64,000 nt of DNA from Candidatus Omnitrophota bacterium (GTDB lineage: Bacteria; Omnitrophota; Gorgyraeia; Gygaellales; Profunditerraquicolaceae): the NCBI GenBank assembly GCA_028712255.1, contig JAQTQJ010000004.1:19956-83955 (forward strand), in the 5' to 3' direction. The stretch's first letter is position 1. The number at the start of each line of letters is the position of its first letter. Shown here one piece after another: positions 3,119 through 47,572 of the stretch. The position numbers and the translations under genes were made by a program. Under the pieces are notes generated by a model, which worked only from the letters and a program-made list of their open reading frames with translations, was not told the origin of the DNA and did not search any database.

Positions 3119-3135
3119 TATAAAATTTATTCTAC

Positions 3136-4334: not shown

Positions 4335-4342
4335 ATTATAAT

Positions 4343-4579: not shown

Positions 4580-4586
4580 ATTAATC

Positions 4587-30431: not shown

Positions 30432-30592
30432 CGCTTAATATTTTACCATATAAAAATTTTAAGCGAAGTTAAATATTAGTAAAAAGGGGCGCTTTTTAGA
30501 GGAACCTTTATGCCGGTAGGCTTAAAGGAAAACGCCCCTTTTGATTCGTTAATCCTTGTCATTCCCGCGAAAGCGGTAATCTACCTACATCC

Positions 30593-30635
30593 GTCATCCT
30601 GAGTCCGCCAATGCTTTAGTGGCGGACGAAGGATC
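30593..30635. repeat. Family A palindromic element variant (gtcatcctgagtccgccaatgctttagtggcggacgaaggatc), preceded by a cccgcgaaagcgg mini-hairpin
   Basis: Immediately 3-prime of the giant ORF stop; likely terminator function. Confidence 0.65.
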
Positions 30636-33600
30636 TATTTATTAAACGCTATTCTTAATTCCTCTCCACTTCTTCCTGATCCCAACACTACCAGGATATC
30701 TTTAAGTGTTGGATCGGTTAAACAACAGCTCTCTTCTTCCATCCTGAGGATATCTGCAATACAAGAGACTATTCTATTGGTATCTTGATCCAGGCTACCT
30801 TTAAAACAGCTAGCAGCAAGATACTCTTTTAGGCGTTCTGCTGATGGGGTGATCCCTGAATTAACTAAACGCTCTATATCTGACCACTCTTGGGTTAGGT
30901 TGATACCTTGTAGAGTGCTTTGAGGCAAACTCCTTATACCTGCTTTGAGGCTATCTATAGACTGGATAACGATAGGCAGAAAGCGGAAGTCGATTCCCCC
31001 AAGCTTCTCACCTTGTCGGGAATCGATGGTGAGGGTAGTCGAACTATCGATGCCGCCGGGAGCAAAAGCAGAATTTGATGAAGAACTTGTTGAGCCGTTG
31101 ATGGGGCCGGTAGTTTTCGGTTTAGCAATCTCATTCTCTAAATATTCTTTAAGATCTGCCAAAATTGAAGCTTTCAAAGATTTATATCCTTTCTGACTCC
31201 TATTAATATCAAGCGCTGATAAAACCCTTGTGACTCTTCCTTCTACGTCTTTGCTAATCATTGCCCATGCAATAGGCACTGGCGGCCTACCCGCTTTCTC
31301 ATAGAACGCAAAAATACCTTCTTGCGTATCATCTATAAGCAATTTCCCCAGCATATCGCCGTAAGAATCCCACTCCCTAAAAATTTCTTTACTCGCTCTA
31401 GGAAATACCTTTCTTAAAGCCTCAGCTTTCATTTTCATTTTAATTTTATCTACAATGAGTTTTGTAATATCGCGCCATGCATCTTTAATTTCATCCGGAG
31501 AGAAAGATGTTTTTGCATCGAGGCCAAAGTATTTAGCAGTTCTTACACCTTGCCGCATTCCCTCAATATACTCCTTTAGAGTTTTAGCGTATTCCTGACT
31601 AAGTATTTCTAAATGTTCTGGATTATTACGATCAAATCCTACTTCAGCAAGCATACTAAATATCTCTTCTTTAAATCTTATGATTTCCGGACTCTCACCG
31701 GAAATTATAAGCTCAAGGCCATTGGGAAGACCTAAGTTTTCTTCATCATCCTTATCAATGCTTCTCTGAGTATCTGCATATCTACGTAATGTTTTATCTC
31801 TTTCTTCTGAAGTTATATGGGACGGTTCTGTTGCTTCATTGCTTCCTGCAAGAGCTTCAGCTGCTACTTGTTTTGCTTCTTTGAATGCTTTCTTTGGATC
31901 ATCGCCCCTTATTGTTTTAACCAATTCTTTGTTCTTTCTTACTTCATAATAAATTTCTCCATTATTAATATAAACCTGTATCTCAACAGAGCCATCCCCC
32001 TGAGATATTGTATTATTTAATCCGTTAGGCATAGTTCCAGAAGCAAGATTGATCCCTGTATCGGGACTAGTGGGATTAAGAGAGCTTGGGGACGGTTCTG
32101 TTTCTCCCGAGTCCATTTCCAGAGAAACAGAACCGTCCCCATTATTCAAAGATACAGCCGCCGCGTATTTCATCGCCTCAGCAAATGTGCCTACTGCATC
32201 GTGGGTAAAATCGCTCAGATGCGCAATATAACCTTCCTGCCAAAATCGCCCTGCATTATCCTGACGCATAAATTCCTCTAACAGATGCCCTAATTCATGA
32301 ACAATCGTATCAGTAGCAGAATCTATCGCGGTTGAATTAGTAGCGGCTCGGCCAATCTCTGAGGCAATAGAGCGGGCAAGAAACATCGTGTGTTTACCTT
32401 GATAAATCTTAAAAGCGCCGGCAAATCTCACTTCATCATTTAACAAAATTATCTGCTCGATGCCAAAATTACGGGCTATCCCCCAAGCCAATGTTACTAA
32501 TTCTCTTTCGTTATCATTATAATCATTCGGGTTGAGAATATACCTTTCCGGACGCTGCATTTGATCATGGCCCAAAGCAATACCTAGGGCTTGCATAACT
32601 TTATTTCCTGAAAAAGGAATATCGCTTAAAGAAGGTAATCTTCCAAGATTGAAACCTCCTGACATTAATAATTCTCTTTGCAATTTAGCTGCACCCAATA
32701 TTGCCTTATTAGTCTCCTCTTGAATCGCCAGGCGCCGCGTTAGAAGGCTTACCTTAGAATCAGAGTTTTGCCTATTAGAGAAAACTTCCAAGAGAAGGAT
32801 AAGTTTAGTAAACTTCTTTTCTTTATCTAACTTCCCTGGTTCTGTAAGTAATCCTCTTAAGGCTTCTTCTGAAATACGCTCAATCCTGCCTACGTTTATA
32901 TCATTGGCTACCCCTAATATCCATCTATCGCTTGCAGGATTAATTGATTGCCAGTAACTATCATTGGTCTCCCAGTCTAAAGGAAACCCTTCAAATACAA
33001 ATTGCGGGCTGCTTTGAGAAAGGGCTTTATAGGCGATTGCCTGAAAAAAGGCAACAGCAACGTAGCGCTGAATCTGAGGAAGAAATTCATTCTCATGCTC
33101 AAAGGCGCTGCGATTACGAATAAGCGGTAGAGGTATCTGGATGATAATCCCTAACTCCTGAATATGCCGGCGTAAAACTGAAGGAATTAATGCTAAGTAC
33201 TCTTCTTTCATTTCACTAACCCTTAAACCTGCTTTATCCACAATCTGTAAGGGCATATCTTTAGCGCTGATAATACGCAAAGGGCCAAAATTCGTCTCAT
33301 CTTTTTCCTGAGGACGGACTGCTTTAAACTCAACTTCAGCTAAGATATCTTTCTCTACAGCGAGCTGCTGCTTTTTACCTTCATGGTCAATAAAAAATAC
33401 CTTAAAATGCTCATCCTGCGCCAGGCCAACAAAGATCTTCCAGGAACGCTGGCTGAGCATCTGGTCCAGCTCGGGTATGGTATTATCCAATGACTTGATC
33501 CGCCTTACGGTTACGCCTTGAGCAACTTTAGGATCAGTTATCTTGCGTATACGCGTTAACTTAACTGCGGTTGGCCTCCCCGAAGAATCTCTAATTACCG

Positions 33601-36600
33601 CAAAAACAAACATATAAGCGCGTTGGCTATTTTTAGTAATAATCTCAAGCCGGTCCACTCCTTCAAACAGCGTATATTTTCCTGTGCCAAAGAACCCGGT
33701 GAGTTCAATCTGGCCTGCGGCTGCCTTAGTAGATTTAGGAATAAGCAAGGCCACCTCTTCTAGGGCGCCGGTCCCATTATCCCGAGCTTCTTCAACATAC
33801 TCTTCTTGGCCTTGAGAGTTTTGCTGAAGGTAAAAATCTACTAATAGCTCCCCGTGTTTACCACGCGTAGCATCACGGGAATTTTGGGCAATCTCAGCAG
33901 TATAGGCGCCAGATTCTCTTTGCACAGTAGCATTAAGTAAAATATCCGATTCTAACTTTGCTGAAGACTGAGGAAGATTAAAAATACTTCTTACAAGTTG
34001 CTCAACGCTCATAACCTTATCCGCGAGCCCGTTCTTTGGCCTTTGCTGCTCAAGTTTAATAATCTGCGACAAGGCTACTGCCTCCTCCGGGCCTCTAGCA
34101 TTAAATTCATCCACACCCTCAGGCTCAGTCCTTTCCTTCTCTCTTAACTGCTCGACATTATTAGTTAAAAAAACCACAAAGGGGCGCGCTTTACCCAGCT
34201 TATGAGCATCCTTAAGTTGAAATGATCTTCGTTCGTTTGCGTCATCAAATAATTCAAAGGCGCTATACAAATCAGATAAATATTTATCTCTGGCTTCTGG
34301 TTTTAAGGCTAATAGCCTATTTATCTGATTGGCAAGGATATGAGCACCATCGGCGTGGTTTGCAGCTTGAAGAGAAACACCTGAGAGAAAATTTATTATT
34401 GATGTAAGCCTTTTAACTTCACCGGGAGTTGCTTCTTTTAGCGCAGCGATGAATTTGATTATTACGGGTAAGATATCTATCTTTTCCTGATAAGTACCCC
34501 AGCCATAAGCAAGGGCTTCAAAAAGTTGATTATCTATCTCAAGATGTTCGATGTTTAACTCTCTCTCCTTAGAAATGCAGATAAGGCTAAAAAACAAATC
34601 AAAATAAAAATCGTATTGATCCTCAATTCTCTCTTGAGAAAGCTGAGTTTTTCTTTCCTGAAGAAATCCGGGCAAAACCCGCAAAAATTGCTGCATCCTT
34701 CGGCTAAAAATATCAAAGGGCAATTCTTCAAGGTTCAAAGGCTGATTATTTTCGAGCGCTTGCCGGAATCTACGATTAATCTCATCTTCTTGGTCTAGAT
34801 AAAGTTCTTTAATCATTTCTCCGAGACTAAAGTCGGACCGATGCTTGAATTCTTCCGGGATTAAATCTAAGAATGGCTGATAAGCAGCCTGCGCCCTAGC
34901 AATAAAAGCGTCACGCTGAGAGAAAACATTATCTCTCCATTTTGCCATAACCTCTTGCGCGTTAATCTGTGCCTCTTCTGCCTGCGCTTGAACTTGAGCG
35001 GGTTGAGGCGCTTGAACAAATACCTTGCGCGGGTCCAGATACCTTATCTCTTGGGTCTGAGGATTAACAAACACAAAATATTCGCCGTTAACGTCTGCAC
35101 AAATAAAATTTTGAGGTACTTGTTTAGTAACACCCTTAATCTCGCCGAAATTATTAACCAAAAGAATGCGTCCATCATGAGTAGCTACAAGAATAAAGTT
35201 ATTATTTTGCTCTATAAAGAATTGATGCTCAAAAAAAAGCGAAGCAACAGGCCTTGACTTATCGGTTATCGCATATACTACTTCAAAACCTCTTTCTGCA
35301 TTTAAAAGATACCAAACCTTGCCACCTTCTAACGACACCACACGATCAGAGGGCTGTATTTGTTTAATATCTGTTAATAATCCGGAATCTAAATTTAAAA
35401 TACACACATCGTGATCACCAGTTGGTAAATAAAAACTACCTTCGTAATGAGAAAAATTACGAAAAATCAAATTATTACCTTGCAGCAAAATGCTCCCCAA
35501 TGGTTCTATGGGAGTACCTCTATTATATTCAAAACCAATTGAGGCCATTACTTCTCCCCAATGCGTCTTATAAGATTCTGGAATTCCATTTGTCTCTTCA
35601 TCCCAAATTGTTTTCTTCTCTAAATCGTATTCTTCCCAGTAACGTCGAGATATCGGGTCTGTTGACGGCCCTGCCTCAATAACTTTAAAAATATTTCGAT
35701 GAATAAATATACCCGGAGCCGCATATCCGCTGGCTCTACTAAATACATCGCACTCTTTAAGTCTCCCATCCTTATTTACTATCAGTAAATAAGTTTTGCC
35801 TCCGTCAGAAGTAACTCTTATTTTACCTCCTTCTTCAAGATCTCGATGTTTAGCTCTCATTGATATAAACATCTCATCTTTCTTTTCTTCTTTTTCATTT
35901 AACCATAAATAATCCAATTTATTGCCGGCCTTAAATATCGCCACTTCTCCGGAAGAATCAATTTCAATGTGGTCAGCGCCTTGGATTAAAAACCTGCCCT
36001 GCCCTAGACTAAATAAACTGTATTTGCCCTGCTTATCCTGGAGAATAACCACATCTGCCTTATCATCTACGCGAAATCCCAACGAATCATGCGTGATTAT
36101 TTGCGGCACCCTATTTGGGGCTGTGTTATAATCACTATATGTAAGGATGTTATTGCCTTGTTTATGCACCGAGAATCTTCCCGAAGCAGACAGAAAAACT
36201 TCTGACGATTCCGATTGCTCTACTCCTGAGGCGGTATCGAGCACAATATAATGCTTCTTATTTGGCGTTCCCAACGGCAACATATCGATTTTCTCTATAA
36301 CCACCAAATTACCCTTTATGGCTACAACAGAGTATGTAGTTCCTATTATGGGCCGTCCGTCAAACAACTGTTGATCTCCCTTATAAATGTAGAAAGAATC
36401 ATTAGATTCATACACAATAAAGGCATCGGTTGACCCTATTCGCTGAACACGAACATATGCAAATGGAGCGGCACGATTTTTATCTTCACGGTTAATAAGG
36501 CTAAAACCTCCGCCGGGTTGCGGAGTAATTATGATAGAATTCGGCGCATCCGCAGGCTTAGTCTCGCTAAATAACGCAGCTGGCTGCACTTGCGGATGAG

Positions 36601-39600
36601 CTAATGGCTCAGCCTCAGTAGATTCTACCTTTTCAACTTCCGCTAATACCTCTATAGCGGCATAATAATTTTCTAGCACCAGAACATTATTATTATTTAT
36701 GAGCTCAAGAATTTCTTTAAGGATTGCCTTGGCCTCAGCTATCCTATTTCCCTTAGCAAATGCCTCAGCTACAGAAACAAGAGCTTCACATTTCATCCGA
36801 ACTTCGTCTTCAGGAATCTTCCTGGTTATCTTCAAGGATTCATCTACTTCACCTATTTGGGCTAACCCTTGAGCTATATTAAATAATAAGCCTGGATAGA
36901 TAGACTTACGAACAACAGAATCCGTATTGAATTGCCCCAAAACTTCCAGTATGCTATTACATAATCGCCCTGCTTCTTTTATATCCCCATTCTCTATCAA
37001 TCCCTTAACTTCATGGGATAGGAACAATAATCTTTCTAGAACACTACCTAGATCCAACTGCTTGATCACAATATCAAATATTTCCTGCAATTTTTCTGGC
37101 CGGACTAAGAATTTATCTGTCCCGACGAAGCTCTTAAGTATGCTATCAAAAACCTGCCCTTTTCGGGTAACATCTGATATTTTGATTGTTATCGAGAGCG
37201 CTTTCTTAAACACGTTTTCTGCATCGGCAATTCTGATCATCTTAAAGTAGGCGGCGGCTACAATAGCCAAGGCTTCCGCCTTATCTTCAGGATCAGTAAG
37301 TTTCTCTGCGATACGTTGCGCTCTTTGCAATAAAGCATAAACTTCTTCTTCTGGTAATTTTGACTCAACTAATGCATTTGTAATATCTAATAACTCTGTT
37401 CCCTTAGACCATGAATTGGGAAACTTTTCTACATTAATGAGTATATCTTCAAATAACTTACCTGCCTCTCTTTGTCTTTCTAGTCTAGAAAATGCCTTGG
37501 CTATAATTGCAAGTATTCGTTCTTTATTATCGAGCTTTTCTACTGTGCCCTTAATCTCTTTTAGCAGAGTAAAAACCTCTTGGATGGTGATATCTGAGGC
37601 GATTAATGCTTCAATAATAGTAGAAATATTCTCACGCAGATCATTATGGCTCATGCCCTTTATCATATTCACTAATTTTGCAAACAAGGCATAAGTTCCA
37701 GCACTTCCTTGTAAACGAGCAGCTCCAGCCAACGCTTCAGTTATAGAAGCAATAGCTCTTGCTTTAGCAGAAGGATCTGGAATGTGGCCTGTAAAATCAA
37801 TAACTTCTTCAAATAGCCCTAACCTTTCAGTAGTACCCATAATAACACCGGCGGATTTATCCATTACCATAACAAAAGCTTTAACCGCTCTAACCATTAA
37901 CCAAGATCTACTACGATTATCATTCTCAAAAACATTTTGTGCCTCAAGATACGCCTTGCGCAGTGTAACAAAAGCTAGATCTTCCTGCCCTATTTCAGCT
38001 TCTGCTAAAGCTGTAGCTATAAGGGCATCACATCCGTCTGCATTCCGATCAGAAGCGTCCTTTTCTACTCTATAAAAATGATGCGCCTTATTCAGCGCTT
38101 CTTTTGCTTCATCAATTCTTCCTGTTTTAGCTAATCCTCTGGCTAATACGGCATAAGCGCGGCATCTTGAATAATCATCAGGCAAGGCCTGCGCAATGCC
38201 ACTGACTACTTTAACTAAATCTAAATCAGCTGGTTCTTTAGCCTGCGCGCCAGCTTCCTTTACGCCTTTTTGCATGCTCATTACAGGAGGCTCTCTTAAA
38301 AATTTATTAATTGCACCGGAATCAATTGCTCCGCTTACCTCTTTAACTTCTGGAATTGCTGTAACTGCCAAGTTATCTTTGGGCTTGGCATGCTCATAAC
38401 TTGTCACCACCTCTTCAGCGGTAATAATGTTTACTCTTTGCAACAGTGAGGAATATTCTTTTTCTTCTTGGGCCGTCAAACCGCCGCTTCTTTTCCTGCT
38501 CAATTCTAATAATCTCCTGCCCAACTCCTGCGGTATAATCACAAAACTTTCGGTTTTGATTACTGGCAGGCGTTCTTCTTTAGCCCAGGTATGCCATAAA
38601 CGGTCAAACTTAAAAAACCTTTTTGTGGCTTCTTGAGTAAAAGGAGCAATAATCAAAGGCAGGTGGCTAGCCCCTCCTAAAGTAACATACGGAATTATCT
38701 CTCCTCCGATTGCGTTTAAGAAACTAGAAAGCTGCCAATCAAATAATTTTCCATGCACAAAAAGTACATCCTTGCCTCCGAGTTCAAGTTTACCAAACTC
38801 TTTCTGCTGAGGCAGGACAATAACCCCCTGATGCCTTAACTCTTGTATTAGGCCGCTGATTACTTCCTGAACATTAGCGCGGATACCTTTTACCAAATGG
38901 CTGCTATTAGCATTGGAATTAATTAAGCCATCAAGGCCAACCATTATGGTATTAATATATTTTATTTTCTCGCGGGTAGTCAATTTGGGATGTTTTACAA
39001 TCTGCTTTATCGCGTACTCTACCCCTTGCTGGAAACTGGGAATCTTGCCGCCTAAATTAAGGCCCATGATAATATTATCCCGGGATTCGGAAACATCCAG
39101 CAAACCGCCTAATTCAAGCATTAAACCGCCTGTTACAGTAGCGCTATCCATAATCTCTCCGGGAATATCTACCGCTATAATTACCTCTCCATTCCTGGCA
39201 AAAGAAACCCGATGGGGAAGCGCTTCATCATGAACAACTTTTACTTTACCCAGTTCTCTATCTATATTTAACTCTAAAGACGCGGGGCGCTTTGTCCCTT
39301 CTTTGGGTACAAACATTTTAGCGAGAACCTCGGCATCCATGCCACTGCCATTATCAACAATAGTTATGGCATGCTCTGAAGTAATTACTTTTACAAACCT
39401 GCCCTGGCTTTCTTCTGGGGCATGAGCCTTGCTCCTCACCGGCACAACTACTCTTTTATTCTCAAACCCGTTAATCTTTACGGGTTCCCTCTGGCCGCTC
39501 ATCTGCGTATAAATATCCACTTCCCCTACAAACGGGAAACGCTGATGTATAGCGTCAGCTATTGCTCCTTGAGAATTACGATGCGTTTCATCACGCTGGC

Positions 39601-42600
39601 TATCCAAGCGCGGAATAGCCTCAACAGTAGACACTTTTACAATAGTGCCATGCTCTATAATTTGGCCGGCATATTCTTGGGCTAGATCCTGATATTCCTG
39701 CGCGGATATCTCTTTAATCTGAATATATCGAGCGCCTTGAGCATCTCTAGTTAGAGTAAGATGATAGGCTTTACTGTTTTCTTTACGTGTAAATATTTCT
39801 ATTTTATCTTCAGCCGAAGGCCCTAACCAATCAATAATCTGCTTTACGCCCTTACTAAATTGGCCTATGCGGAATCCATGCGCATCCAGCCCATTAGATA
39901 CTGCTTCGCATATACTCTGTATCCTTGCATTTTTGTTTTGGTCAACGATCTCTACATCTAATCTTACACCCTCAACAGGATATGTGTCTCCAATAATCAG
40001 GTCTACAACTTCTTTTGCATATCCATTACTGCCAAACCCCTCATATATAGCTTTATATGCAGCTTCTCCTGTAAGAGCAGTATTGAGTTTTAAAAGTTTT
40101 AAAATATCAGGTAATAATTCCCTTGGGATATTTCTTTCTGCCAACCGATACTGTGCCCAGATAAAACGATTAAGGTCGACTAAGTCTATGCTTGGCTGCA
40201 ATTGTATAGTTGCTCTAGCTTTATTCCAAGGCCAGCGTATGCTTTGCGCCCATTCCACTACCATCTTACCCAAATCTATCTGGCCAAATCTATCATAGAA
40301 AAACTGGGCCGGCCCAGAACCAATGACTACGCTCTTGCTACCAGTAGCCGCGCGCGAAGTTGAAGTTGCCAGCTGCGGCGCTGGCGTTACTTGAGCTACC
40401 TTTAACACCTGGCCTTTATTCGTAGTAGATATATACTTTTTGATCGCATCAAATAGATCGGATCCGTCAACATATTGAAGCAGGTTATTGATTGCGGACA
40501 CATTTTTGAAAAATAACCGGATCCTCAGCGGCGTATCATACCCTCGCTTTTCAAATTCTGCCATTAAGAGATTGGCAACACTTGAGCTGACATCTTTTCC
40601 TTGGATTAGATCAATAACTGTTGACCAAGAAAATATTTTCTTTAGGATTACTGACCGTATCTCTTGGCGAACCTTATCCTGATCGGTTTTATCCGGATTT
40701 ACTTGCAAAAGATAATTAATCAGCGCATCAACTTTACCCATAAAATTAAATTTCCAAGCCATACTTAATCGGGTAATTAGATCAATATCCACAGGTAATA
40801 ATTTAAGATAATAATTTCTATCGATTACTATTTTTTCATATGATCCGTCGGGTCTTTTATTAAGCATTAAATTACCGATATGAAAATCCGAATGCGCCAT
40901 ATATATGGTTTCTCCGGAATAGGAATCTGCAACCGGAGTCAACAAATGCGTCAAATAATCCCTGGCAAAATCAGCTAACGCCGCTTTTAGTTTTGAATCA
41001 CTCACTCTTCCTTTCTTATCCGTCTGGGCGGGAACAACCTGGTCGCCCCCATTTAATATCTTCTTAAGCGTATCCCCTGGAGCATATTCCTCAACTTTTA
41101 TTCTGTATCCATATGGCTGCAAAACACGCGATGTGGTTATTGAGCCTGCCGCAGGATAAAATACAGCTGAAGAAAATATCGCATCGTCACTTAAGAAAAA
41201 GCCATCATTAATGTCATCTTTGACCCACAACCTTAAAGTACCCAACAATCGTTCTGCCATAATGTATTGCCGTTCATTTTTAGGGTCTTTAGCAATTAAA
41301 TCTTTCACTGTTTTTTGCATTTGTTCTGCGCGTTCGCCTAATAGAACCTCAAGATTCGGAGATATAATTTTTACCACCTGTCTAGCAACACTCCCATCCG
41401 GTTGTGTCACTGACACTAAATACGCGGTATTAATGGAGCCCCCGCCTAACACTTTTTCTATCCTAAGATGTATTTTTAAATACTCCATTGCTTCAACCTG
41501 TGCAGTATAAAATGCTTTAAAACTTGCCAAGGTTTCTGTGAACACCTCTTCAAACATTGATGCGGTACGTTCATTATATTCAGTAAGCTTTTTATCCCGT
41601 AAATTTTGGGCAAATAAAGATAAGAATACGCGTTGATCGTAATCTTGAAGCGGGCTGTCATTTAAATTAAAACGGAATCCCAGAAAATTAATTGCTTCTG
41701 CCCGGAACTGTTTAAGATATTCAGTTAGCGGTATTGTTTGGCCTGCTTCCATCAGGCGCTTTGACCATTCAGCATAAGCAGCGGATTTAATCCACGCCCC
41801 ATCCCGGACTGTTTGCATACGCTCAATTTCAACTGCCAGCGACTGAAACAAATTACTCTTTACCAGAGTAGAGGCGTTATCATACACATTACTGAACTCT
41901 TCCTTATATTCTTGCGGGATAGCGTAATACTGGCCAAATACTTGTAGGAACCGGACACCGAGCGCGCCAATTGCTTGCCCTGCGGTAGCAATGAATTTAC
42001 CTAACCTTATAGATAATGCTTTAGTTTTTCCAACTGTAGTTTTAAATTGAAATACCGCATTCTCCTGGCGATAATATTCCCGCTCTTTTGCTTGAAACTT
42101 AAGCAGCTGCGGGTTGATCATCGATTCGCCGGGATTAAATACCGCATACACTGCCTCAATCTCAGTATCGGGAATATATGACGGGTTATCCTTCAGAAAC
42201 GCAAAGAATTGTTCTGCTGTTTTACCATACTCCTGCGTTACGTACTTCTTATATTTTTGATATTGCTTGTGCTCTTTTAATTGTCTATCATAACCATGTT
42301 CTTTCCACCGTTTACGATCATAACTGCTTCGGCCATATGATTTCTGTAGCTCTTCCAAGCTCAAAAGATTTTGTGTCGGCCGATAAATTTCATTCTGAAA
42401 ACGCTCATAAGCAGGTAACCACCTCTGTAACCTGGAATCCCGCACAAATGGATCAGCTGGCTGTGTAAACCACGACATAACTGCGGCGCGGTGTGTATAC
42501 GCAGGATCACCGACCAACGCATGTTCCGCAAGAACTTTTGATAAGAAAAGTGTTAGCTCGCTATTGTCCACATTCGCTAAAAATGCCACTAGAATATTTT

Positions 42601-45600
42601 GCATAAGTTGTAATTCTTCTGGTTTCATACCTGAAACATTCCCTAAAATCCATGCGCTGAGTTTCTCCAAATTTTCTGCCCGGAAAAACACAGCGTTATA
42701 TTTTGACAAAAGCCTCTGGAAGAAAACAAAACGCTCAAGTTGTGTCATGGAATAAAAACGGTTCATCCAATCATCAACGCGTTGAACATCCGTAATAGCG
42801 CTAACATCAACGTCGTCTCTCTGTTGCGCTTCTGCCCGAATCTTAGTAATCGTCTCCATGATTACCGATGCAAGATAATCATCATCTCCTGTTACCATTG
42901 CCTTCATAAAATCCATCGCCTGTTTTTCACCAATCTTCATCTCCTCAAGTGTTTTATCCAATGCCATAAAACCACCCAGCATCACTTTTCCATCAAGGCT
43001 ATTGCCCTTCTCGTAAACACTCACTAATTGTTGATATTGTTGATATTCGGCATCCGTATCCACGCGCTCCTGGCGGAAATAATACAACGCATCAAAATTT
43101 CCATATCCTAACTCATTTGATACAAACGTGTAGGCATCGGAAAATTTCCCTTCCTTGATTATGCGGTGGCGCAGATTCGTCAGAAGCTCACGTTTCTGCC
43201 TTCCCGGAGGAGAATAACGCTCAATAAAATAATACGCTTCTTCCAAATCTTTCCAAGAACTCACTGACAATGACGCTGCGTAAAGTTGCAAGCTTACTAA
43301 TTTTGCTTCAATTACAGGGTGAAGAAAATTAAGTTCATCTGAATCCTTGCCATAATAATTAATTAATACTTCCTGTCCAAGAAACCGGCTACGGCCTCCA
43401 ATAGCAGAAATAGATCCTTGATTTTTTATCTTTCTTGCCGATATCTCTGCATTAGACAATGCAAATGATGCATGGATACTATCGGTAAGCGCCTGCAATT
43501 GTTGAATCGATAATAAACTAAGCTTATTTATCAGTGTTGCTTGCGCAGCTTCTGCATCAAAATCGGTAAGCGCTGCATTGGCGAGTGAATTATCATTAAC
43601 CGCATCGGCATAAATAAACTGTCTTGCTTTTCGGACAGTAGTATATTCTAATCTTTTCTTTTTTGCTTGCCCGCTGACAGATTGCGCAATCGCAGCAAGC
43701 TCTTCACGTTGCGGGTTTTGCTCCCATAACAGGTAATATTTTTGGTCCATTTGACGCAAAATAACCTCATAATCTTCTTCATTAACCTTTGATTCTTCCC
43801 TGCTCTTACTTTCTACGCAAAGAATATCTCTTCGAATAGCGCTCTCAATAAAAAATGCTTCGCTCAATGATGCCTTCTGATATGCAATAAACTCGCTACT
43901 TACTAAGAACTGTTCCATCGCCTCCCGGTAGAACACGGCATAAGCCTGAGCTTGTGCTCTATCTGTACTCATCCGGCTAATGCCTTCTACGCTAATTGGC
44001 AACCATAATCGCCCGTCCTTATCTTGAAAATGATTTGCTGTGAATTTTTGTATATACATTCGCAAGAATCCAACTCTATCCCCTTGAGCCATATATTCAT
44101 AAAGCCCTATCTGCTTTCCATACTCCGGTAATTTTGCTTGCTGCAATACCCGGTTAGTCGCTTCCATTCTGAGCCCATAACTTAACGGGTTTACGCTTGA
44201 AAATATATCAAATAGCGACGAACTAAGCCATAAAGTTAGATCCACATACGTCATACGGCCAAACCTGTTATGAATTTCTTCTCCAAGTTCGGTGTCATTT
44301 GGTTGGCGATTAGAATAGTCTTTGGCTTCTTGCAAATCCTGAGTATTACGAATCCATTCGGCGGTAAAGGTAACTAATTGTCCCAATTTCTTCTTCTGTG
44401 CTTCTGATAACCGGCTTGAGAATTGCTCGTAAGAATCAAAATCCTTACGGAGCGCTGCTTCTTCATTAAAAATGTCATGCCACAATGACCCTACAAAATA
44501 CCATTGATGCGGATTTTCGCTCCCAACCAGTCTCTGTTTTCGTATATCCTCATTGGCCCTCTTTGGATAATAAACAAAAGAAGGATCAAGGATATTCTTT
44601 TCAACATACTTCTTGCTTGAAATATACTGCTCGAGAAATATTCTATATGTTTCAAAGTCTTTTTCAGAATCAAAAGAATTTATTAAATTTGAATAAAACA
44701 CGGAGAAATAATACTGCCGAAGCTGCCTTAAATAATCAGAAAGCCATATCCGTGAGCCACCAAACGCAGGATTGGAAATCTTCCCGCTTGCATTAAATGC
44801 TAGTGTAATCGCAGTAATCCTCTTGCCAAAACCATCAAGGCTCAACAGTGAGCCATCAAAAGTAAAGAAATTGTAGACCTCTTGCCACTCCTGAACATTA
44901 GGAGATTCTGTTTGGATATTTAGTAATCGCATAAAGTAATCTCCCAGATAGGGGGCCATATCGTAGCCATCAGGATTATCATTGCGAGAGGAAAGCAGTG
45001 ACAAGGCCAAATATCGAACTACCTCATCTGTACTCTCGGCTGGAAGGCCATCCGCGCATGCAGTATTCTCTTTCAAGAGATACTGGCTGATATATACAAG
45101 TTTCTGCCAACTAAGATAGTAAGATGCCGCATTAAACGGTTGCCTCTGTTGTGTTCCGATAAATTCTTCGATGATGAATTTATATTGCTCTTGCGAAGAT
45201 AGTGTTTTTTGGGTCAACTCCCCCCAAGTATCTTTAAAATCCTGAAATGAAGATTGTTTTAAGTACGTTAAATAATCAAGGACAATAAAATACCCTTCCG
45301 GAGATTTCCAGTACCCCTCTAACGGATGAAAGGCGTTAACATGCGTCAAATCCTGTCCCTGTAAATTCATGCGCAGAAGCGTCGTTCGATCAAATTGACT
45401 TCCATGCGTCCAGTCAGAGCTCCCCTTCACAAAGCTTTCCAGCTTGTTAGATAAATAAATAACCGCGAGTTGATTAAATCCAATACCGTTGATTAACGAA
45501 GGAGAAACTGCATCCGCCTTATATTCCCCAAGACGTTTATCTAAAGGGGTACCGACGTTATTCCAGGTTAAATAATTATCCTGATAATGTGACAATTCAT

Positions 45601-47419
45601 GCGCGAGCACCGCGGCAATTTCATCAGAAAAATCCAGGCCATCAAGTAATTTTTGCGTAATCACCACAGAGCCGTCAGGAAGGCAATACGCATTGACTAC
45701 CGGCTCAAGAGATATGTATACTTTTATATCCGTACGTAGCTGTTTGTGCCCTGCCCGATCGTTGAGCCTAGTGGTAATCTTGGTAATCGTATCCGATAAA
45801 AACGCATACTGTTTGCTGTTGGCATCTGCGCCAGGATCCAAAATTCCGTAGCGCTCGTTTACTAAACCCAAAAACTTTTGGAATTCTTGTTCATCTCGTA
45901 GGACAGTAGGATCACTTACTGTAAAATGGTAATCCTTCGGCAAAATTGCGTATGTTTGCGCAACTTTATCATATTGTTTCTTAACGGCATCGAATACTGG
46001 TATCGATGATAGGGGATTTTGTGATGATGAAGCATTCTTCTTAATTGACTTAACGGCATTTGAAATACCTGCCTGAAACTTCTGGAGTAATGATTGAGCT
46101 TGTTTTGTTGGTCCTGGTTGGGGAATATTCTCAAGATTAGGGGATGGTTCTATTCCTTTGGCCTCAGCAGCAGCCACGCTTGGGGCACTCTCCCCTACAC
46201 CTGCTACTACGTCTATCTCTGAACCTCGAACATTCACTTCGGCTAGATCAGAATTGCTTACACTGGGATCACCGACAGTGGGAGCTATAGTAGTTATTGT
46301 TCCTGCCGGGTTAACAGAAGTGGCTTGTCCAAAAGCAGGAATTACCTGGCCGATGGCAAAGCCTCCTGAAAAGTAACTCCTGATACTCTGGCCAAAAGGG
46401 GTACTGATGGGTTCTTGAATGTTGTATTGGCCTTTAGCAAAGTTCTCCTTGTAGGCATTGAAATAGGTAGCTACGGAGTAGGGGATTTGGATTTTAAGGT
46501 TAGTGAGATCTTTAGAATCAATAGTTGGGTAGGGTAGGTTTAAACCTGCCCTACCACCTTGAGTTGTTGGGGACAGTCCCCTATGCCTGGCTTTGAACCA
46601 TTGGGCAAGAATTAGTGAGTAGTAGACCTGTCTTAGGGGAGCATAACGCTTGGCATTGTTGATTTCTTTGGTTAACCTGGGAATAATATCCTCTCTTATG
46701 ATTTGAGCGGAGTAGGCGTTGAGCTGCCTTTCTCTTACGTCTTTGAAAGAGTAGACAACATTATCTTTTAGATAGTCTTGCTCAAGCATTACTTTAAGGG
46801 TTGCCTTGTAGATATAGGCTGAATCTACTGATTCACGGATAATGATCTCATCCGGGACGATCCAGGGGCGGGTTAGCGTGGGAATGGTTACGTTCTGGGT
46901 GCCATAGAGCTCTTGGGCGCGTGTATAGAGTTTATCCCAGTACTCTTTGCCTTGAGGAGTAGAAGGATTAGTGGCATCAGCAGTGTCTTTTTTAAGCTGG
47001 AGGTCTGCTTCCAGGAGGATCTTGCCTATTTGAGTTTGAGCTAGGAGTGGATCAATGATATCATCGGGTAAATCAGGGCGAAGGTTAACCCAAAAGGTGC
47101 CATTGGGTAGAGCGATACCTGTAAAGAAGTAGTTGAGCAGGTCTTTGGTAGTTGATTCAAGTCCAGGGGTCCTCTTATCCTTAAACTGGTCTCCTTTGTC
47201 TAAAAGAAGTTTAAAGTTGTTGTTTAGGCTATCATAAGAGATAGATCTTAGGTGTAGGGGACGGAATTTATCGGGAGATAGAGCATTGTGCAGGGAATTA
47301 AGAGTGCCGGCGATATTTAACTCTGCATTGGCTACTTGGGCAAAGCCGGTTTGTTGCAATAAAAGAGATACGCACAGCAGAATAGAAAGAATCTTAAAGG
47401 TTTTGGATTTTTTCATCAT
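30635..47419 (-). CDS. Giant secreted multidomain protein (5594 aa, single ORF): signal peptide, M48-like HExxH peptidase, UbiB/ABC1-like kinase, GHKL ATPase module(s), TPR-like repeats, beta-rich region, second HExxH motif
   Basis: Uninterrupted 16,785-nt minus-strand reading frame; individual motifs located by residue counting and verified against the DNA (HELSH at 45587..45601, EIAQNSRDA at 33869..33895, HELGH at 32285..32299). Confidence 0.9.
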   Translation of the reverse strand: MMKKSKTFKILSILLCVSLLLQQTGFAQVANAELNIAGTLNSLHNALSPDKFRPLHLRSISYDSLNNNFKLLLDKGDQFKDKRTPGLESTTKDLLNYFFTGIALPNGTFWVNLRPDLPDDIIDPLLAQTQIGKILLEADLQLKKDTADATNPSTPQGKEYWDKLYTRAQELYGTQNVTIPTLTRPWIVPDEIIIRESVDSAYIYKATLKVMLEQDYLKDNVVYSFKDVRERQLNAYSAQIIREDIIPRLTKEINNAKRYAPLRQVYYSLILAQWFKARHRGLSPTTQGGRAGLNLPYPTIDSKDLTNLKIQIPYSVATYFNAYKENFAKGQYNIQEPISTPFGQSIRSYFSGGFAIGQVIPAFGQATSVNPAGTITTIAPTVGDPSVSNSDLAEVNVRGSEIDVVAGVGESAPSVAAAEAKGIEPSPNLENIPQPGPTKQAQSLLQKFQAGISNAVKSIKKNASSSQNPLSSIPVFDAVKKQYDKVAQTYAILPKDYHFTVSDPTVLRDEQEFQKFLGLVNERYGILDPGADANSKQYAFLSDTITKITTRLNDRAGHKQLRTDIKVYISLEPVVNAYCLPDGSVVITQKLLDGLDFSDEIAAVLAHELSHYQDNYLTWNNVGTPLDKRLGEYKADAVSPSLINGIGFNQLAVIYLSNKLESFVKGSSDWTHGSQFDRTTLLRMNLQGQDLTHVNAFHPLEGYWKSPEGYFIVLDYLTYLKQSSFQDFKDTWGELTQKTLSSQEQYKFIIEEFIGTQQRQPFNAASYYLSWQKLVYISQYLLKENTACADGLPAESTDEVVRYLALSLLSSRNDNPDGYDMAPYLGDYFMRLLNIQTESPNVQEWQEVYNFFTFDGSLLSLDGFGKRITAITLAFNASGKISNPAFGGSRIWLSDYLRQLRQYYFSVFYSNLINSFDSEKDFETYRIFLEQYISSKKYVEKNILDPSFVYYPKRANEDIRKQRLVGSENPHQWYFVGSLWHDIFNEEAALRKDFDSYEQFSSRLSEAQKKKLGQLVTFTAEWIRNTQDLQEAKDYSNRQPNDTELGEEIHNRFGRMTYVDLTLWLSSSLFDIFSSVNPLSYGLRMEATNRVLQQAKLPEYGKQIGLYEYMAQGDRVGFLRMYIQKFTANHFQDKDGRLWLPISVEGISRMSTDRAQAQAYAVFYREAMEQFLVSSEFIAYQKASLSEAFFIESAIRRDILCVESKSREESKVNEEDYEVILRQMDQKYYLLWEQNPQREELAAIAQSVSGQAKKKRLEYTTVRKARQFIYADAVNDNSLANAALTDFDAEAAQATLINKLSLLSIQQLQALTDSIHASFALSNAEISARKIKNQGSISAIGGRSRFLGQEVLINYYGKDSDELNFLHPVIEAKLVSLQLYAASLSVSSWKDLEEAYYFIERYSPPGRQKRELLTNLRHRIIKEGKFSDAYTFVSNELGYGNFDALYYFRQERVDTDAEYQQYQQLVSVYEKGNSLDGKVMLGGFMALDKTLEEMKIGEKQAMDFMKAMVTGDDDYLASVIMETITKIRAEAQQRDDVDVSAITDVQRVDDWMNRFYSMTQLERFVFFQRLLSKYNAVFFRAENLEKLSAWILGNVSGMKPEELQLMQNILVAFLANVDNSELTLFLSKVLAEHALVGDPAYTHRAAVMSWFTQPADPFVRDSRLQRWLPAYERFQNEIYRPTQNLLSLEELQKSYGRSSYDRKRWKEHGYDRQLKEHKQYQKYKKYVTQEYGKTAEQFFAFLKDNPSYIPDTEIEAVYAVFNPGESMINPQLLKFQAKEREYYRQENAVFQFKTTVGKTKALSIRLGKFIATAGQAIGALGVRFLQVFGQYYAIPQEYKEEFSNVYDNASTLVKSNLFQSLAVEIERMQTVRDGAWIKSAAYAEWSKRLMEAGQTIPLTEYLKQFRAEAINFLGFRFNLNDSPLQDYDQRVFLSLFAQNLRDKKLTEYNERTASMFEEVFTETLASFKAFYTAQVEAMEYLKIHLRIEKVLGGGSINTAYLVSVTQPDGSVARQVVKIISPNLEVLLGERAEQMQKTVKDLIAKDPKNERQYIMAERLLGTLRLWVKDDINDGFFLSDDAIFSSAVFYPAAGSITTSRVLQPYGYRIKVEEYAPGDTLKKILNGGDQVVPAQTDKKGRVSDSKLKAALADFARDYLTHLLTPVADSYSGETIYMAHSDFHIGNLMLNKRPDGSYEKIVIDRNYYLKLLPVDIDLITRLSMAWKFNFMGKVDALINYLLQVNPDKTDQDKVRQEIRSVILKKIFSWSTVIDLIQGKDVSSSVANLLMAEFEKRGYDTPLRIRLFFKNVSAINNLLQYVDGSDLFDAIKKYISTTNKGQVLKVAQVTPAPQLATSTSRAATGSKSVVIGSGPAQFFYDRFGQIDLGKMVVEWAQSIRWPWNKARATIQLQPSIDLVDLNRFIWAQYRLAERNIPRELLPDILKLLKLNTALTGEAAYKAIYEGFGSNGYAKEVVDLIIGDTYPVEGVRLDVEIVDQNKNARIQSICEAVSNGLDAHGFRIGQFSKGVKQIIDWLGPSAEDKIEIFTRKENSKAYHLTLTRDAQGARYIQIKEISAQEYQDLAQEYAGQIIEHGTIVKVSTVEAIPRLDSQRDETHRNSQGAIADAIHQRFPFVGEVDIYTQMSGQREPVKINGFENKRVVVPVRSKAHAPEESQGRFVKVITSEHAITIVDNGSGMDAEVLAKMFVPKEGTKRPASLELNIDRELGKVKVVHDEALPHRVSFARNGEVIIAVDIPGEIMDSATVTGGLMLELGGLLDVSESRDNIIMGLNLGGKIPSFQQGVEYAIKQIVKHPKLTTREKIKYINTIMVGLDGLINSNANSSHLVKGIRANVQEVISGLIQELRHQGVIVLPQQKEFGKLELGGKDVLFVHGKLFDWQLSSFLNAIGGEIIPYVTLGGASHLPLIIAPFTQEATKRFFKFDRLWHTWAKEERLPVIKTESFVIIPQELGRRLLELSRKRSGGLTAQEEKEYSSLLQRVNIITAEEVVTSYEHAKPKDNLAVTAIPEVKEVSGAIDSGAINKFLREPPVMSMQKGVKEAGAQAKEPADLDLVKVVSGIAQALPDDYSRCRAYAVLARGLAKTGRIDEAKEALNKAHHFYRVEKDASDRNADGCDALIATALAEAEIGQEDLAFVTLRKAYLEAQNVFENDNRSRSWLMVRAVKAFVMVMDKSAGVIMGTTERLGLFEEVIDFTGHIPDPSAKARAIASITEALAGAARLQGSAGTYALFAKLVNMIKGMSHNDLRENISTIIEALIASDITIQEVFTLLKEIKGTVEKLDNKERILAIIAKAFSRLERQREAGKLFEDILINVEKFPNSWSKGTELLDITNALVESKLPEEEVYALLQRAQRIAEKLTDPEDKAEALAIVAAAYFKMIRIADAENVFKKALSITIKISDVTRKGQVFDSILKSFVGTDKFLVRPEKLQEIFDIVIKQLDLGSVLERLLFLSHEVKGLIENGDIKEAGRLCNSILEVLGQFNTDSVVRKSIYPGLLFNIAQGLAQIGEVDESLKITRKIPEDEVRMKCEALVSVAEAFAKGNRIAEAKAILKEILELINNNNVLVLENYYAAIEVLAEVEKVESTEAEPLAHPQVQPAALFSETKPADAPNSIIITPQPGGGFSLINREDKNRAAPFAYVRVQRIGSTDAFIVYESNDSFYIYKGDQQLFDGRPIIGTTYSVVAIKGNLVVIEKIDMLPLGTPNKKHYIVLDTASGVEQSESSEVFLSASGRFSVHKQGNNILTYSDYNTAPNRVPQIITHDSLGFRVDDKADVVILQDKQGKYSLFSLGQGRFLIQGADHIEIDSSGEVAIFKAGNKLDYLWLNEKEEKKDEMFISMRAKHRDLEEGGKIRVTSDGGKTYLLIVNKDGRLKECDVFSRASGYAAPGIFIHRNIFKVIEAGPSTDPISRRYWEEYDLEKKTIWDEETNGIPESYKTHWGEVMASIGFEYNRGTPIEPLGSILLQGNNLIFRNFSHYEGSFYLPTGDHDVCILNLDSGLLTDIKQIQPSDRVVSLEGGKVWYLLNAERGFEVVYAITDKSRPVASLFFEHQFFIEQNNNFILVATHDGRILLVNNFGEIKGVTKQVPQNFICADVNGEYFVFVNPQTQEIRYLDPRKVFVQAPQPAQVQAQAEEAQINAQEVMAKWRDNVFSQRDAFIARAQAAYQPFLDLIPEEFKHRSDFSLGEMIKELYLDQEDEINRRFRQALENNQPLNLEELPFDIFSRRMQQFLRVLPGFLQERKTQLSQERIEDQYDFYFDLFFSLICISKERELNIEHLEIDNQLFEALAYGWGTYQEKIDILPVIIKFIAALKEATPGEVKRLTSIINFLSGVSLQAANHADGAHILANQINRLLALKPEARDKYLSDLYSAFELFDDANERRSFQLKDAHKLGKARPFVVFLTNNVEQLREKERTEPEGVDEFNARGPEEAVALSQIIKLEQQRPKNGLADKVMSVEQLVRSIFNLPQSSAKLESDILLNATVQRESGAYTAEIAQNSRDATRGKHGELLVDFYLQQNSQGQEEYVEEARDNGTGALEEVALLIPKSTKAAAGQIELTGFFGTGKYTLFEGVDRLEIITKNSQRAYMFVFAVIRDSSGRPTAVKLTRIRKITDPKVAQGVTVRRIKSLDNTIPELDQMLSQRSWKIFVGLAQDEHFKVFFIDHEGKKQQLAVEKDILAEVEFKAVRPQEKDETNFGPLRIISAKDMPLQIVDKAGLRVSEMKEEYLALIPSVLRRHIQELGIIIQIPLPLIRNRSAFEHENEFLPQIQRYVAVAFFQAIAYKALSQSSPQFVFEGFPLDWETNDSYWQSINPASDRWILGVANDINVGRIERISEEALRGLLTEPGKLDKEKKFTKLILLLEVFSNRQNSDSKVSLLTRRLAIQEETNKAILGAAKLQRELLMSGGFNLGRLPSLSDIPFSGNKVMQALGIALGHDQMQRPERYILNPNDYNDNERELVTLAWGIARNFGIEQIILLNDEVRFAGAFKIYQGKHTMFLARSIASEIGRAATNSTAIDSATDTIVHELGHLLEEFMRQDNAGRFWQEGYIAHLSDFTHDAVGTFAEAMKYAAAVSLNNGDGSVSLEMDSGETEPSPSSLNPTSPDTGINLASGTMPNGLNNTISQGDGSVEIQVYINNGEIYYEVRKNKELVKTIRGDDPKKAFKEAKQVAAEALAGSNEATEPSHITSEERDKTLRRYADTQRSIDKDDEENLGLPNGLELIISGESPEIIRFKEEIFSMLAEVGFDRNNPEHLEILSQEYAKTLKEYIEGMRQGVRTAKYFGLDAKTSFSPDEIKDAWRDITKLIVDKIKMKMKAEALRKVFPRASKEIFREWDSYGDMLGKLLIDDTQEGIFAFYEKAGRPPVPIAWAMISKDVEGRVTRVLSALDINRSQKGYKSLKASILADLKEYLENEIAKPKTTGPINGSTSSSSNSAFAPGGIDSSTTLTIDSRQGEKLGGIDFRFLPIVIQSIDSLKAGIRSLPQSTLQGINLTQEWSDIERLVNSGITPSAERLKEYLAASCFKGSLDQDTNRIVSCIADILRMEEESCCLTDPTLKDILVVLGSGRSGEELRIAFNK
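32088..32140. repeat. 19-bp perfect inverted repeat inside the giant ORF (ggggacggttctgtttctc ... gagaaacagaaccgtcccc), in frame, encoding GDGSVSLEMDSGETEPSP
   Basis: Seen directly; same GGGGACGGTTCT core as the family B terminator hairpins. Confidence 0.85.
32240..32512 (-). other. Giant protein: second HExxH zincin-like motif (TIVHELGHLLEEF, aa ~5040)
   Basis: HELGH verified in the DNA at 32285..32299; surrounding fold unassigned (DUF4157-like possibility). Confidence 0.3.
33560..33952 (-). other. Giant protein: Hsp90/MORC/sacsin-like GHKL ATPase module 2 (aa ~4490-4620)
   Basis: N-box EIAQNSRDA (ExxxNxxDA), G1-box ARDNGTGA (DxGxG) 35 aa later, G2-box GFFGTGKYTLF 28 aa later; order and spacing canonical for the Bergerat fold. 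Confidence 0.6.
35000..36472 (-). other. Giant protein: beta-strand-rich region, possible beta-propeller (aa ~3650-4140)
   Basis: Recurrent short hydrophobic strands with G/D/N turns (ILVATHDGRILLVNNFGEI, YLLIVNKDGRL); composition-based. Confidence 0.25.
36620..38182 (-). other. Giant protein: TPR/HEAT-like alpha-helical repeat region (aa ~3080-3600)
   Basis: Repeated amphipathic helix pairs with A/L/E/K-rich patterning (RIDEAKEALNKA, RIAEAKAILKEI); composition-based. Confidence 0.35.
39260..39922 (-). other. Giant protein: tentative GHKL-like ATPase module 1 (aa ~2500-2720)
   Basis: N-box-like CEAVSNGLDAH and a strong G1-box AITIVDNGSGMDAEVLAKMF, but the spacing (~180 aa) is atypical. Confidence 0.3.
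40640..41542 (-). other. Giant protein: UbiB/ABC1-like atypical kinase module (aa ~1960-2260)
   Basis: GGGSINTAYLVSV (ASIAQVH-like), ARQVVKIISP (VAVKVQRP-like), HSDFHIGNLM (HADPHPGN-like catalytic motif), VIDRNYY. Confidence 0.5.
45320..45802 (-). other. Giant protein: M48-family zinc metallopeptidase-like module (aa ~540-700)
   Basis: VYISLEPVVNAYCLPDGSVVITQKLLDGLDFSDEIAAVLAHELSHY matches the M48 (HtpX/Ste24/BepA) core around HExxH. Confidence 0.65.
47324..47419 (-). other. Giant protein: Sec signal peptide (aa 1-32, MMKKSKTFKILSILLCVSLLLQQTGFAQVANA|E)
   Basis: Basic N-region, hydrophobic core, AxA cleavage motif. Confidence 0.7.
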
Positions 47420-47516
47420 TTTGCCTACCGGTTTATTAACTTACTATAAGTATGCTATATAGGTAAGTAAAAACAAGGGTAAAATAAGGAAAAAAGAAAG
47501 GGTTTTCAGAATGATA

Positions 47517-47566: not shown

Positions 47567-47572
47567 CAATGT

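Follow-up and report, generated by a model that had tools for sequence, protein, structure and literature searches.

What kind of protein is encoded by a single 16.8-kb gene in an Omnitrophota genome, and where would it act? The gene lies in a 64,000-nucleotide stretch of DNA (the window) from a Candidatus Omnitrophota bacterium (GenBank assembly GCA_028712255.1, contig JAQTQJ010000004.1, positions 19,956 to 83,955). An initial annotation had proposed a secreted mosaic of peptidase, kinase, and GHKL ATPase modules. Its account of the gene itself was correct. The open reading frame (ORF) occupies positions 30635..47419 of the minus strand and runs from an ATG start through 5,594 codons to a TAG stop, with no internal stop. 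No further ORF of more than 143 amino acids (aa) overlaps it. The product was also rightly said not to be an adhesin or an RTX-type repeat protein. Tandem Repeats Finder reported one 42-nucleotide, 2-copy array in the gene, and there were no internal repeats when the protein was compared with itself by blastp. The most distinctive feature had escaped that annotation. The two ends of the giant protein are conserved domains, referred to here as the N-domain and the C-domain (Table 1), that are common to hundreds of proteins with unrelated middles.

The shared ends were found by scanning one genome per species with aa 1 to 1200 as the query, which returned eight loci. Six are labelled Omnitrophota or Omnitrophica. 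The other two, labelled Planctomycetales (L003) and Margulisiibacteriota (L006), are taken to be mis-binned metagenome-assembled genomes (MAGs). All eight match the giant protein at its ends alone (aa 1 to ~400 and ~5440 to 5594). Identity is 57 to 81% at both ends in six loci, and 49 to 59% at the N-terminal end with 29 to 35% at the C-terminal end in the other two (L007 and L008). The intact relatives at these loci have 1,429, 2,590, 2,795, and 3,147 aa. Their middles are unlike that of the giant protein and unlike one another, and contain HEAT repeats and GNAT domains or nothing that Pfam recognizes.

We also searched a protein database with the N-domain, scoring 8,000 candidates at an E value of ≤1e-3. 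The domain was present in 328 proteins, and those with a named source are almost all from Omnitrophota, which fits an earlier guess that the gene belongs to an uncultivated, host-associated lineage. Members include proteins that consist of the N-domain only (~345 aa) and minimal proteins of 570 to 720 aa with the N-domain, a linker, and the C-domain. An AlphaFold model of one minimal member (P0036) has both domains predicted with confidence (pLDDT of ~90) and the linker disordered. A metagenome scan for the N-domain added at least 555 confirmed loci out of at least 600 pattern matches, and the cargo between the two ends was analyzed in the 80 best of them. The C-domain closes the same ORF in 45 of the 52 that are complete. 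Cargo lengths are 141 to 3,155 aa, and the 75 cargos of at least 100 aa fall into 50 clusters. None of the 88 N-domain loci compared has cargo in common with the giant protein. With the giant protein included, cargo ranges from 140 to >5,000 aa and is unrelated between members; recognizable domains in the relatives include PGK, GAPDH, PGM, cupin GPI, HD, GNAT, HEAT, and methyltransferase. The giant ORF itself opens with a signal peptide and the N-domain and ends with the GGID/Cys C-domain. These results show that it is a member of a family in which a Sec-type signal peptide, a strongly conserved N-domain of ~330 aa, and a C-domain of ~140 aa surround unrelated cargo. A database search with the C-domain retrieved short contig-end fragments only, and nothing relevant on the GGIDL/GGIDF motif turned up in the literature.

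Table 1. Features of the giant gene, its product, and the adjoining DNA (window positions)
Feature	Residues	Nucleotides	Strand	Remarks
Signal-peptide-like N terminus	1-32	47324..47419	-	MMKKSKTFKILSILLCVSLLLQQTGFAQVANA; sole hydrophobic segment; pattern kept in divergent relatives
N-domain	~33-360	46340..47323	-	Ends ...IRSYFSGG; conserved; no Pfam or NCBIfam family match
Low-complexity linker	~361-470	46010..46339	-	Read from the sequence; P0036 equivalent disordered in the model
Unit 1 (M48...ABC1-kinase)	~471-2334	40418..46009	-	Colinear with segments of P0128 (60% identity) and P0135 (54%)
M48 zinc peptidase core	~546-640	45500..45784	-	HELSH at 607-611; Pfam PF01435
ABC1/UbiB-like kinase (supported through homologues)	~1965-2334	40418..41527	-	LGGGS loop, VVKII, HSDFHIGN at 2176, IDRN
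Module B, GHKL-derived	2414-3060	38240..40180	-	EAVSNGLDA, IGQFSKGVKQ, DNGSGM; non-canonical motif order
TPR/helical-repeat region	~3080-3600	36620..38182	-	Pfam TPR_12, TPR_2
Beta-rich region	~3615-4130	35030..36577	-	21-41% identity in ~20 relatives, between modules B and C
Module C	4160-5100	32120..34942	-	Helical region, Hsp90-like GHKL N and middle domains, helical region, small zincin
Module C Bergerat fold	~4490-4640	33500..33952	-	N box EIAQNSRDA, G1 DNGTG, G2 GFFGTG; canonical order
Second zincin	~4950-5095	32135..32572	-	HELGH at 5041, Glu at +3, conserved T-H ~30 aa further
Variable tail	5101-5454	31058..32119	-	Partial matches in P0021, P0078, and L085 only among relatives
C-domain	5455-5594	30638..31057	-	Double GGID motif (GGIDFRFLPIVIQS), then helical bundle with 4 Cys
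Palindrome		30603..30627	-	GTCCGCCA-n9-TGGCGGAC; 8 nucleotides past the stop; no T-run; terminator scan without a call
Promoter-like element		47443..47471	-	TTTACT-17-TATAGT; 5' of the giant-gene start; consensus match only
Terminator-like hairpin after secA		47518-47536		Consensus match only

Some family members depart from the simple arrangement. In three of the genome loci (L002 1860-7924, L004 364-6811, and L005 1058-6815), the gene is broken up into two or three ORFs that overlap or adjoin and differ in frame. The ORF with the N-domain stops 100 to 500 aa past SYFSGG, and the cargo and C-domain follow. Many of the ~345-aa database proteins (P0001, P0053, P0077, and P0100) end directly past SGG. 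The split genes and the short proteins could reflect frameshift errors, pseudogenes, or a genuine two-gene form. A 236-aa fragment (P0305) has an intein C-terminal splicing block (VYDIEVEGTHNFIGNGIFAHNT, Pfam PF14890) ~25 aa before the double GGID and C-domain. In P0121, P0127, and one sequence of alignment A5 (module C; see below), the C-domain is replaced by an alternative tail, GGID[FL]...(I/F)DPxxL...GFxPVIxxIxPxxSLPxFLG. This suggests a second C-terminal tag family, starting with the same GGID motif, in some module-C proteins. Finally, four sugar-metabolism enzymes lie behind a signal peptide and N-domain in separate relatives: phosphoglycerate kinase, GAPDH, and phosphoglucomutase (in P0062, P0045, and P0063) and a cupin glucose-6-phosphate isomerase (in L073 10088-16966).

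The start of the giant protein resembles that of an exported protein, as had been proposed. The only Kyte-Doolittle window above 1.6 covers aa 8 to 26, preceded by MMKKSK and followed by cleavage-like FAQ/ANA motifs. The predicted arrangement fits a Sec signal peptide on a chain without a membrane helix. A lipoprotein leader was rejected because there is no lipobox Cys at the proper position, and a prepilin-type leader because the hydrophobic stretch lies before G-F and not after it. Signal-peptide-like N termini persist in relatives with just 30% identity, and every complete N terminus among the relatives of Unit 2 (the core family; see below) is of this kind. The protein is also poor in Cys, with 0.30% compared to 1.49% in 36 other ORFs of the window, a five-fold depletion. 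Four of its 17 Cys residues are in the C-domain.

Between the conserved ends are two multi-domain units. Pfam and NCBIfam searches with the full protein found M48 and TPR as the sole domains, and a single-sequence PDB search returned only repeat proteins plus sub-threshold M48 and Hsp90 matches. The remaining assignments come from a motif scan, from profiles of aligned relatives, and from structural models. The motif scan located E...N..D at aa 2505 and 4509, DxGxG at 2689 and 4547, GxxGxG at 4575, HExxH at 607 and 5041, and HxDxHxGN at 2176.

Unit 1 consists of an M48 zinc peptidase, ~1,300 aa without assigned function, and an ABC1/UbiB-like atypical kinase. The M48 core had been suspected from its motif, and it passed the Pfam threshold (PF01435; E value of 1e-11; 45.5 bits against a cut-off of 20.3; aa 546 to 615). 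The match covers profile positions 8 to 79 of 186 only, which is the N-terminal half. An M48 family structure (PDB 3c37) matched with an E value of 0.06, and the NCBIfam HtpX, BepA, and LoiP models scored far under their cut-offs. Downstream of HELSH, E632 (in GEYKAD) is a candidate for the Glu that acts as third zinc ligand in the M48 motif. The kinase was also suspected from a motif, and here the evidence is indirect. PF03109 did not match the giant protein itself at an E value of ≤1, and the region yielded EcKL alone (E value of 0.098, aa 2145 to 2233). However, aa ~1965 to 2354 are matched by two relatives, P0218 (E value of 1e-21) and P0256 (1e-15), that pass Pfam ABC1 PF03109 with 60 to 61 bits (~1e-16) against a cut-off of 22.9. 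Alignment A4 shows no variation in the S, D, H, G, N, and D-R of HSDxHxGN...IDR, and its profile matches an aminoglycoside-type phosphotransferase (E value of 0.003). The predicted ABC1/UbiB-like identity of the domain is supported through these intermediate homologues.

Unit 1 also has stand-alone counterparts. About 30 stand-alone proteins of 1,500 to 1,750 aa have an N-terminal M48 domain and a C-terminal kinase, without a signal peptide or membrane helix. One of the genes is set among housekeeping genes, and synteny around it is not conserved. These proteins belong to a large, uncharacterized family (P0198-P0277 and L011 6001-11031), and most of the sequences are from Logan/ENA assemblies.

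Unit 2 (aa ~2414 to 5100) contains module B, a TPR region, a beta-rich region, and module C, in that order. The ATPase of module C had been recognized from its three canonically ordered motifs (EIAQNSRDA at 4509, DNGTG at 4547, and GFFGTG at 4575), and the G, F, G, and G of the last are almost invariant in alignment A5. There was no Pfam HSP90 or HATPase_c match in the giant protein. The module C profile A1 matches Hsp90 N-domains (E value of 3.2e-5), and in a confident model the predicted N and middle domains superpose on members of the Hsp90 family. A further match is the SR1 domain of sacsin. By profile and model, then, the predicted ATPase domain of module C is Hsp90-like. It is without the C-terminal dimerization domain of Hsp90, and the model instead runs on into a helical region and a zincin. 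The HExxH of this second zincin had been noted before. Its H, E, and H do not vary in 17 sequences, nor does a His downstream of them, and its matches are consistent (HtpX homologue, proabylysin, projannalysin, BepA, and Wss1). Those matches are weak, however, and its assignment as M48/minigluzincin-like is less well supported than that of the first.

The suggestion that a second GHKL module might be present held in part. In module B (aa 2493 to 2712, nucleotides ~39284 to 39942), the N-box-like EAVSNGLDA is followed immediately by the G2-like IGQFSKGVKQ. The G1 box DNGSGM and its Hsp90-like lid (FVPKEGTK) lie ~180 aa further on. The A3 profile of this region matches HtpG around G1 and the lid (E value of 2e-4) and Hsp90/TRAP1 in the G2 region (0.006 to 0.05), and one relative (P0154) matches HATPase_c (5.5e-5). 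Module B is probably GHKL-derived, but its motif order is non-canonical and its support is weaker than that of module C. It could be a permuted or degenerate GHKL domain. Homology between modules B and C was not established, since hhalign gave a probability of just 15%. The TPR-like region had been predicted correctly: TPR_12 is above its Pfam threshold (E value of 4.5e-8, 33.6 bits against a cut-off of 30.1), TPR_2 matches at 5e-5, and designed PPR/TPR proteins in the PDB match as well. The beta-rich region has no family match, and no internal repeat appeared in a relaxed self-blast.

The initial annotation had stated that such modules are never found together. This is wrong for pairs of them. 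A HMMER search of 1.84 billion representative sequences with aa 1880 to 3050 gave 294 matches, and the 150 best were compared with the full giant protein by blastp. Module B is in 67 of these 150, and 49 have both module B and module C, with B first every time. M48 and the kinase are together in 33. The N-domain is at the start of 19, several of which also finish with the C-domain. Only one protein, P0184, has M48, the kinase, B, and C together, in the order B-C-M48-kinase. Therefore, as regards conservation of the architecture, each unit and the frame recur in relatives, but the four-module fusion was found elsewhere only once and in a different order. The junction between the kinase and module B (aa ~2335 to 2413) is in no other retrieved protein. 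Because the pairs recur elsewhere, we regard the giant protein as a fusion of two pre-existing multi-domain units. The comparisons show that it is a rare in-frame fusion of two common units within a common frame.

We lean, by a little, toward reading the giant protein as an exported one whose ATP-dependent cargo (chaperone, protease, and kinase) acts at the cell surface or in a host cell. It would cross the inner membrane via Sec. Whatever stands between the N- and C-domains would be handled by them in a common way, through recognition, anchoring, or further transport. The cargo would be a nucleotide-dependent chaperone, protease, and kinase assembly that works on client proteins, either where the bacterium touches a host or prey cell or inside that other cell. 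Such a site is the most coherent one because the GHKL, kinase, glycolytic, acetyl-CoA-dependent, and S-adenosylmethionine (SAM)-dependent cargo needs cytoplasmic cofactors. Action there would reconcile the signs of export with a need for ATP, NAD, acetyl-CoA, or SAM. An episymbiotic or predatory lifestyle has been proposed for Omnitrophota, which matches such a site (PMC10066038; bioRxiv 10.1101/2023.11.21.568195). Even so, we have less confidence in delivery to a host specifically than in the overall reading. A broader form is tentative and, on balance, unlikely: the frame may be a phylum-wide, undescribed system for export, display, or delivery that carries cytoplasmic-type enzymes into the host or prey contact zone or cytoplasm. 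Its cargo would include Hsp90-like ATPases, ABC1-like kinases, M48 proteases, glycolytic enzymes, acetyltransferases, and methyltransferases, with the giant protein among the largest.

Several points weigh against export and delivery. A role for the N- and C-domains in secretion, anchoring, or delivery is our inference, and so is the passage through Sec of a 5,594-aa chain that contains many foldable domains. No structural relatives of the N-domain were detectable, and there are no conserved neighbor genes that hint at a dedicated transporter. Module B may be catalytically dead, given its motif order. The stand-alone M48...kinase relatives look cytoplasmic, without a signal peptide, so the M48...kinase unit may work in the cytoplasm of the producer. 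They are also equally Cys-poor (0.31%), and Cys depletion is therefore weak evidence of export.

The same relatives bear on an alternative that we consider doubtful, in which the protein is a membrane-tethered scaffold that faces the cytoplasm. The N-terminal segment would then be an uncleaved anchor or unused, and the ATP-dependent cargo would work inside the producer cell, as has been suggested for many TM-only giants of the phylum. Cytoplasmic-type cargo would make sense there (GHKL ATPases and the kinase in the giant protein; PGK, GAPDH, PGM, GNAT, and methyltransferase in relatives), as would the lack of a signal peptide or membrane helix in the stand-alone proteins. Furthermore, ~46% of long Omnitrophota proteins have been read as inner-membrane anchored with their bulk in the cytoplasm (Nielsen & Lui 2026, bioRxiv 10.64898/2026.06.07.730766). 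However, the basic N-terminal end ahead of the helix predicts an N-in orientation with the bulk outside, AxA-like cleavage motifs are kept family-wide, and there is no second hydrophobic segment to bring the chain back. Cys is depleted relative to the neighbors and concentrated in the C-domain. As far as sequence can tell, this combination of orientation, conserved cleavage-like motifs, lack of a return helix, and Cys depletion favors export.

Exported cargo need not leave the envelope. The combination of M48 and TPR is BepA-like, and the neighbors in the window are envelope genes. Both would fit a function in periplasmic quality control, with a BepA/HtpX-like M48 protease, TPR, and Hsp90-like modules serving the biogenesis of the cell's own outer membrane or lipoproteins. 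We think this improbable. Synteny around core-family genes is not conserved, and relatives with the same core are in unrelated neighborhoods; we dropped an operon-based functional inference from SecA and Lnt for this reason. The periplasm is without ATP for two GHKL modules and a kinase, and periplasmic quality control leaves the glycolytic and other unrelated cargo of the frame unexplained. The initial annotation had suggested a self-contained extracellular or periplasmic machine. That was speculation, with no conserved partner genes and with ATP-dependent domains ill-suited to the periplasm.

Conserved ends around a hypervariable middle are also the pattern of self-assembling surface polymers. 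The N- and C-domains might assemble or anchor in a surface layer and display the variable middle, as a coat or adhesin component. A coat-forming role has been proposed for giant Omnitrophota proteins, such as the giant "coat" protein of Velamenicoccus archaeovorus (PMC10066038), and TPR, beta-rich, and HEAT cargo are interaction scaffolds. We give this explanation little credence, because the giant protein is free of repeats and of adhesin, lectin, dockerin, or Ig-like domains, the cargo is mostly nucleotide-dependent enzymes, and oligomerization of the N- and C-domains is without support. Last, an assembly chimera or a decaying pseudogene that joins pieces of different genes would fit the unique kinase-to-module-B junction and the frame changes that split L002, L004, and L005, but it is extremely improbable because both ORF ends are matching bracketing domains, an inserted unit needs two in-frame joins, there is no stop in 16.8 kb, codon usage is homogeneous and like that of the neighbors, and each unit is colinear with intact relatives.

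How does an exported, framed protein of this kind compare with known systems? Large mosaic proteins that combine HATPase_c, peptidase, and kinase domains, which are reported to be common in them, with HEAT and TPR repeats are already known from Omnitrophota (bioRxiv 10.1101/2023.11.21.568195; bioRxiv 10.64898/2026.06.07.730766), so the giant gene is not a categorical novelty. Like the giants of the "Archaeovorin" type, it is a very long single ORF from the same phylum that combines enzymes with HEAT/TPR scaffolds and has few annotatable domains. It shares their origin and mosaic content, since its named relatives are Omnitrophota MAGs and it has peptidase, kinase, GHKL, and TPR regions. Signal peptides are frequent in the described giants (West-Roberts et al. 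2023; Nielsen & Lui 2026). However, its 5,594 aa are under the 10- to 30-kaa thresholds of those two studies. The "Archaeovorin" type is defined by a gene of >90 kb (a protein of >30,000 aa), many membrane helices, and a SecA DEAD-like domain within the chain, whereas the giant protein has a single hydrophobic segment and neither a SecA-like nor a C39/S8 domain. We found no description of the N/C frame in either preprint on giant proteins or in the phylum-level paper in Nature Microbiology. What appears to be new here is this frame with swappable cargo, plus the two recurrent units.

The modules have familiar counterparts. Like Hsp90 (HtpG, TRAP1, and GRP94), module C has the canonical Bergerat order, with the catalytic Glu four residues ahead of the Asn, and like sacsin, the giant protein has more than one Hsp90-like module in one chain. 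Unlike Hsp90, module C has an identity of only 10 to 17%, a helical N-terminal extension of ~330 aa, a zincin in place of the dimerization domain, and a position behind a signal peptide. It is Hsp90-like in working and not an orthologue of Hsp90/HtpG. The first zincin is like M48 proteins (HtpX, BepA, and LoiP) in passing the Pfam threshold, but membrane helices of the HtpX type are absent. The second resembles minigluzincins (proabylysin and projannalysin) in its invariant HExxH and its weak but consistent sequence and fold matches. Unlike gluzincins, it apparently uses the downstream His (in T-H) and not a Glu. The kinase domain has the HxDxHxGN...D catalytic core of UbiB/ABC1 proteins, with the Gly-rich loop and Lys conserved. 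Unlike UbiB, it forms the C-terminal end of a ~1,900-aa unit that begins with an M48 peptidase, and such an arrangement is not described for UbiB. The whole design is like that of MARTX toxins, though not by homology: conserved N- and C-terminal regions surround an interchangeable array of enzymatic effectors in a secreted protein of several thousand residues. There are no RtxA repeats, cysteine protease domain, or type I secretion signal, and there are instead a Sec signal peptide and bracketing domains with unrelated globular folds.

The surroundings of the gene are housekeeping genes, as first described. The SecA gene (47573-50491) is the upstream flank and the Lnt gene (28956-30431) the downstream flank, both confirmed by Pfam. 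Other neighbors in the window are prfB, a PilT/T2SSE-type ATPase, a lipid A acyltransferase, MurJ, LptE, a BamD-like protein, UvrC, holA, and ComEC. The release-factor gene (50586-51569, minus strand; PCRF and RF-1 domains) encodes just 327 aa and matches from profile position 13. This would fit a programmed +1 frameshift, as is usual in prfB, in which a short frame further upstream holds the first codons. Two ORFs, 52972-54465 (minus strand, 497 aa) and 23226-23873 (minus strand, 215 aa), have no Pfam match at an E value of ≤1e-5; the former sits between the PilT/T2SSE-type ATPase gene and a PEGA-domain gene. Six overlapping pieces of the giant protein had no match to PADLOC defense-protein models at an E value of ≤0.01.

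A terminator-like palindrome had been noted at the end of the gene. The palindrome does lie past the stop, but its resemblance to a terminator is incomplete (Table 1). Between the giant gene and lnt there is also a long-range inverted repeat, AAGGGGCG ... CGCCCCTTTTT (30485-30545, minus strand), with a T-run at its end. It may be the real terminator of the giant gene, missed by the consensus scan because its loop is large. Codon usage in segments of the giant gene is close to that of neighboring genes (r of 0.67 to 0.85), and so is GC content, with the exception of the N-domain segment. That segment has a GC content of 0.443 and an r of 0.51 compared to other genes. Positions 46001-48000 are the sole 2-kb interval in the 64 kb with a positive GC skew (+0.13 compared to -0.04 to -0.22). 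Strong constraint, or an exchange of N-domains among paralogues, could account for the odd composition of the N-domain segment.

Very long mosaic proteins are the signature oddity of Omnitrophota. As the literature points out, a location outside the cytoplasm is hard to square with many of the enzyme domains that they contain. The head and tail described here, both conserved, are a sequence handle by which identically handled proteins can be listed from genomes alone, and this makes the topology paradox experimentally approachable. Two multi-domain units are worth study in their own right: the cytoplasmic-looking M48...ABC1-kinase proteins of ~1,550 aa, and the double Hsp90-like B/C core with its zincin. 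If the frame does serve delivery, it would be a MARTX-like modular effector platform built from unrelated parts.

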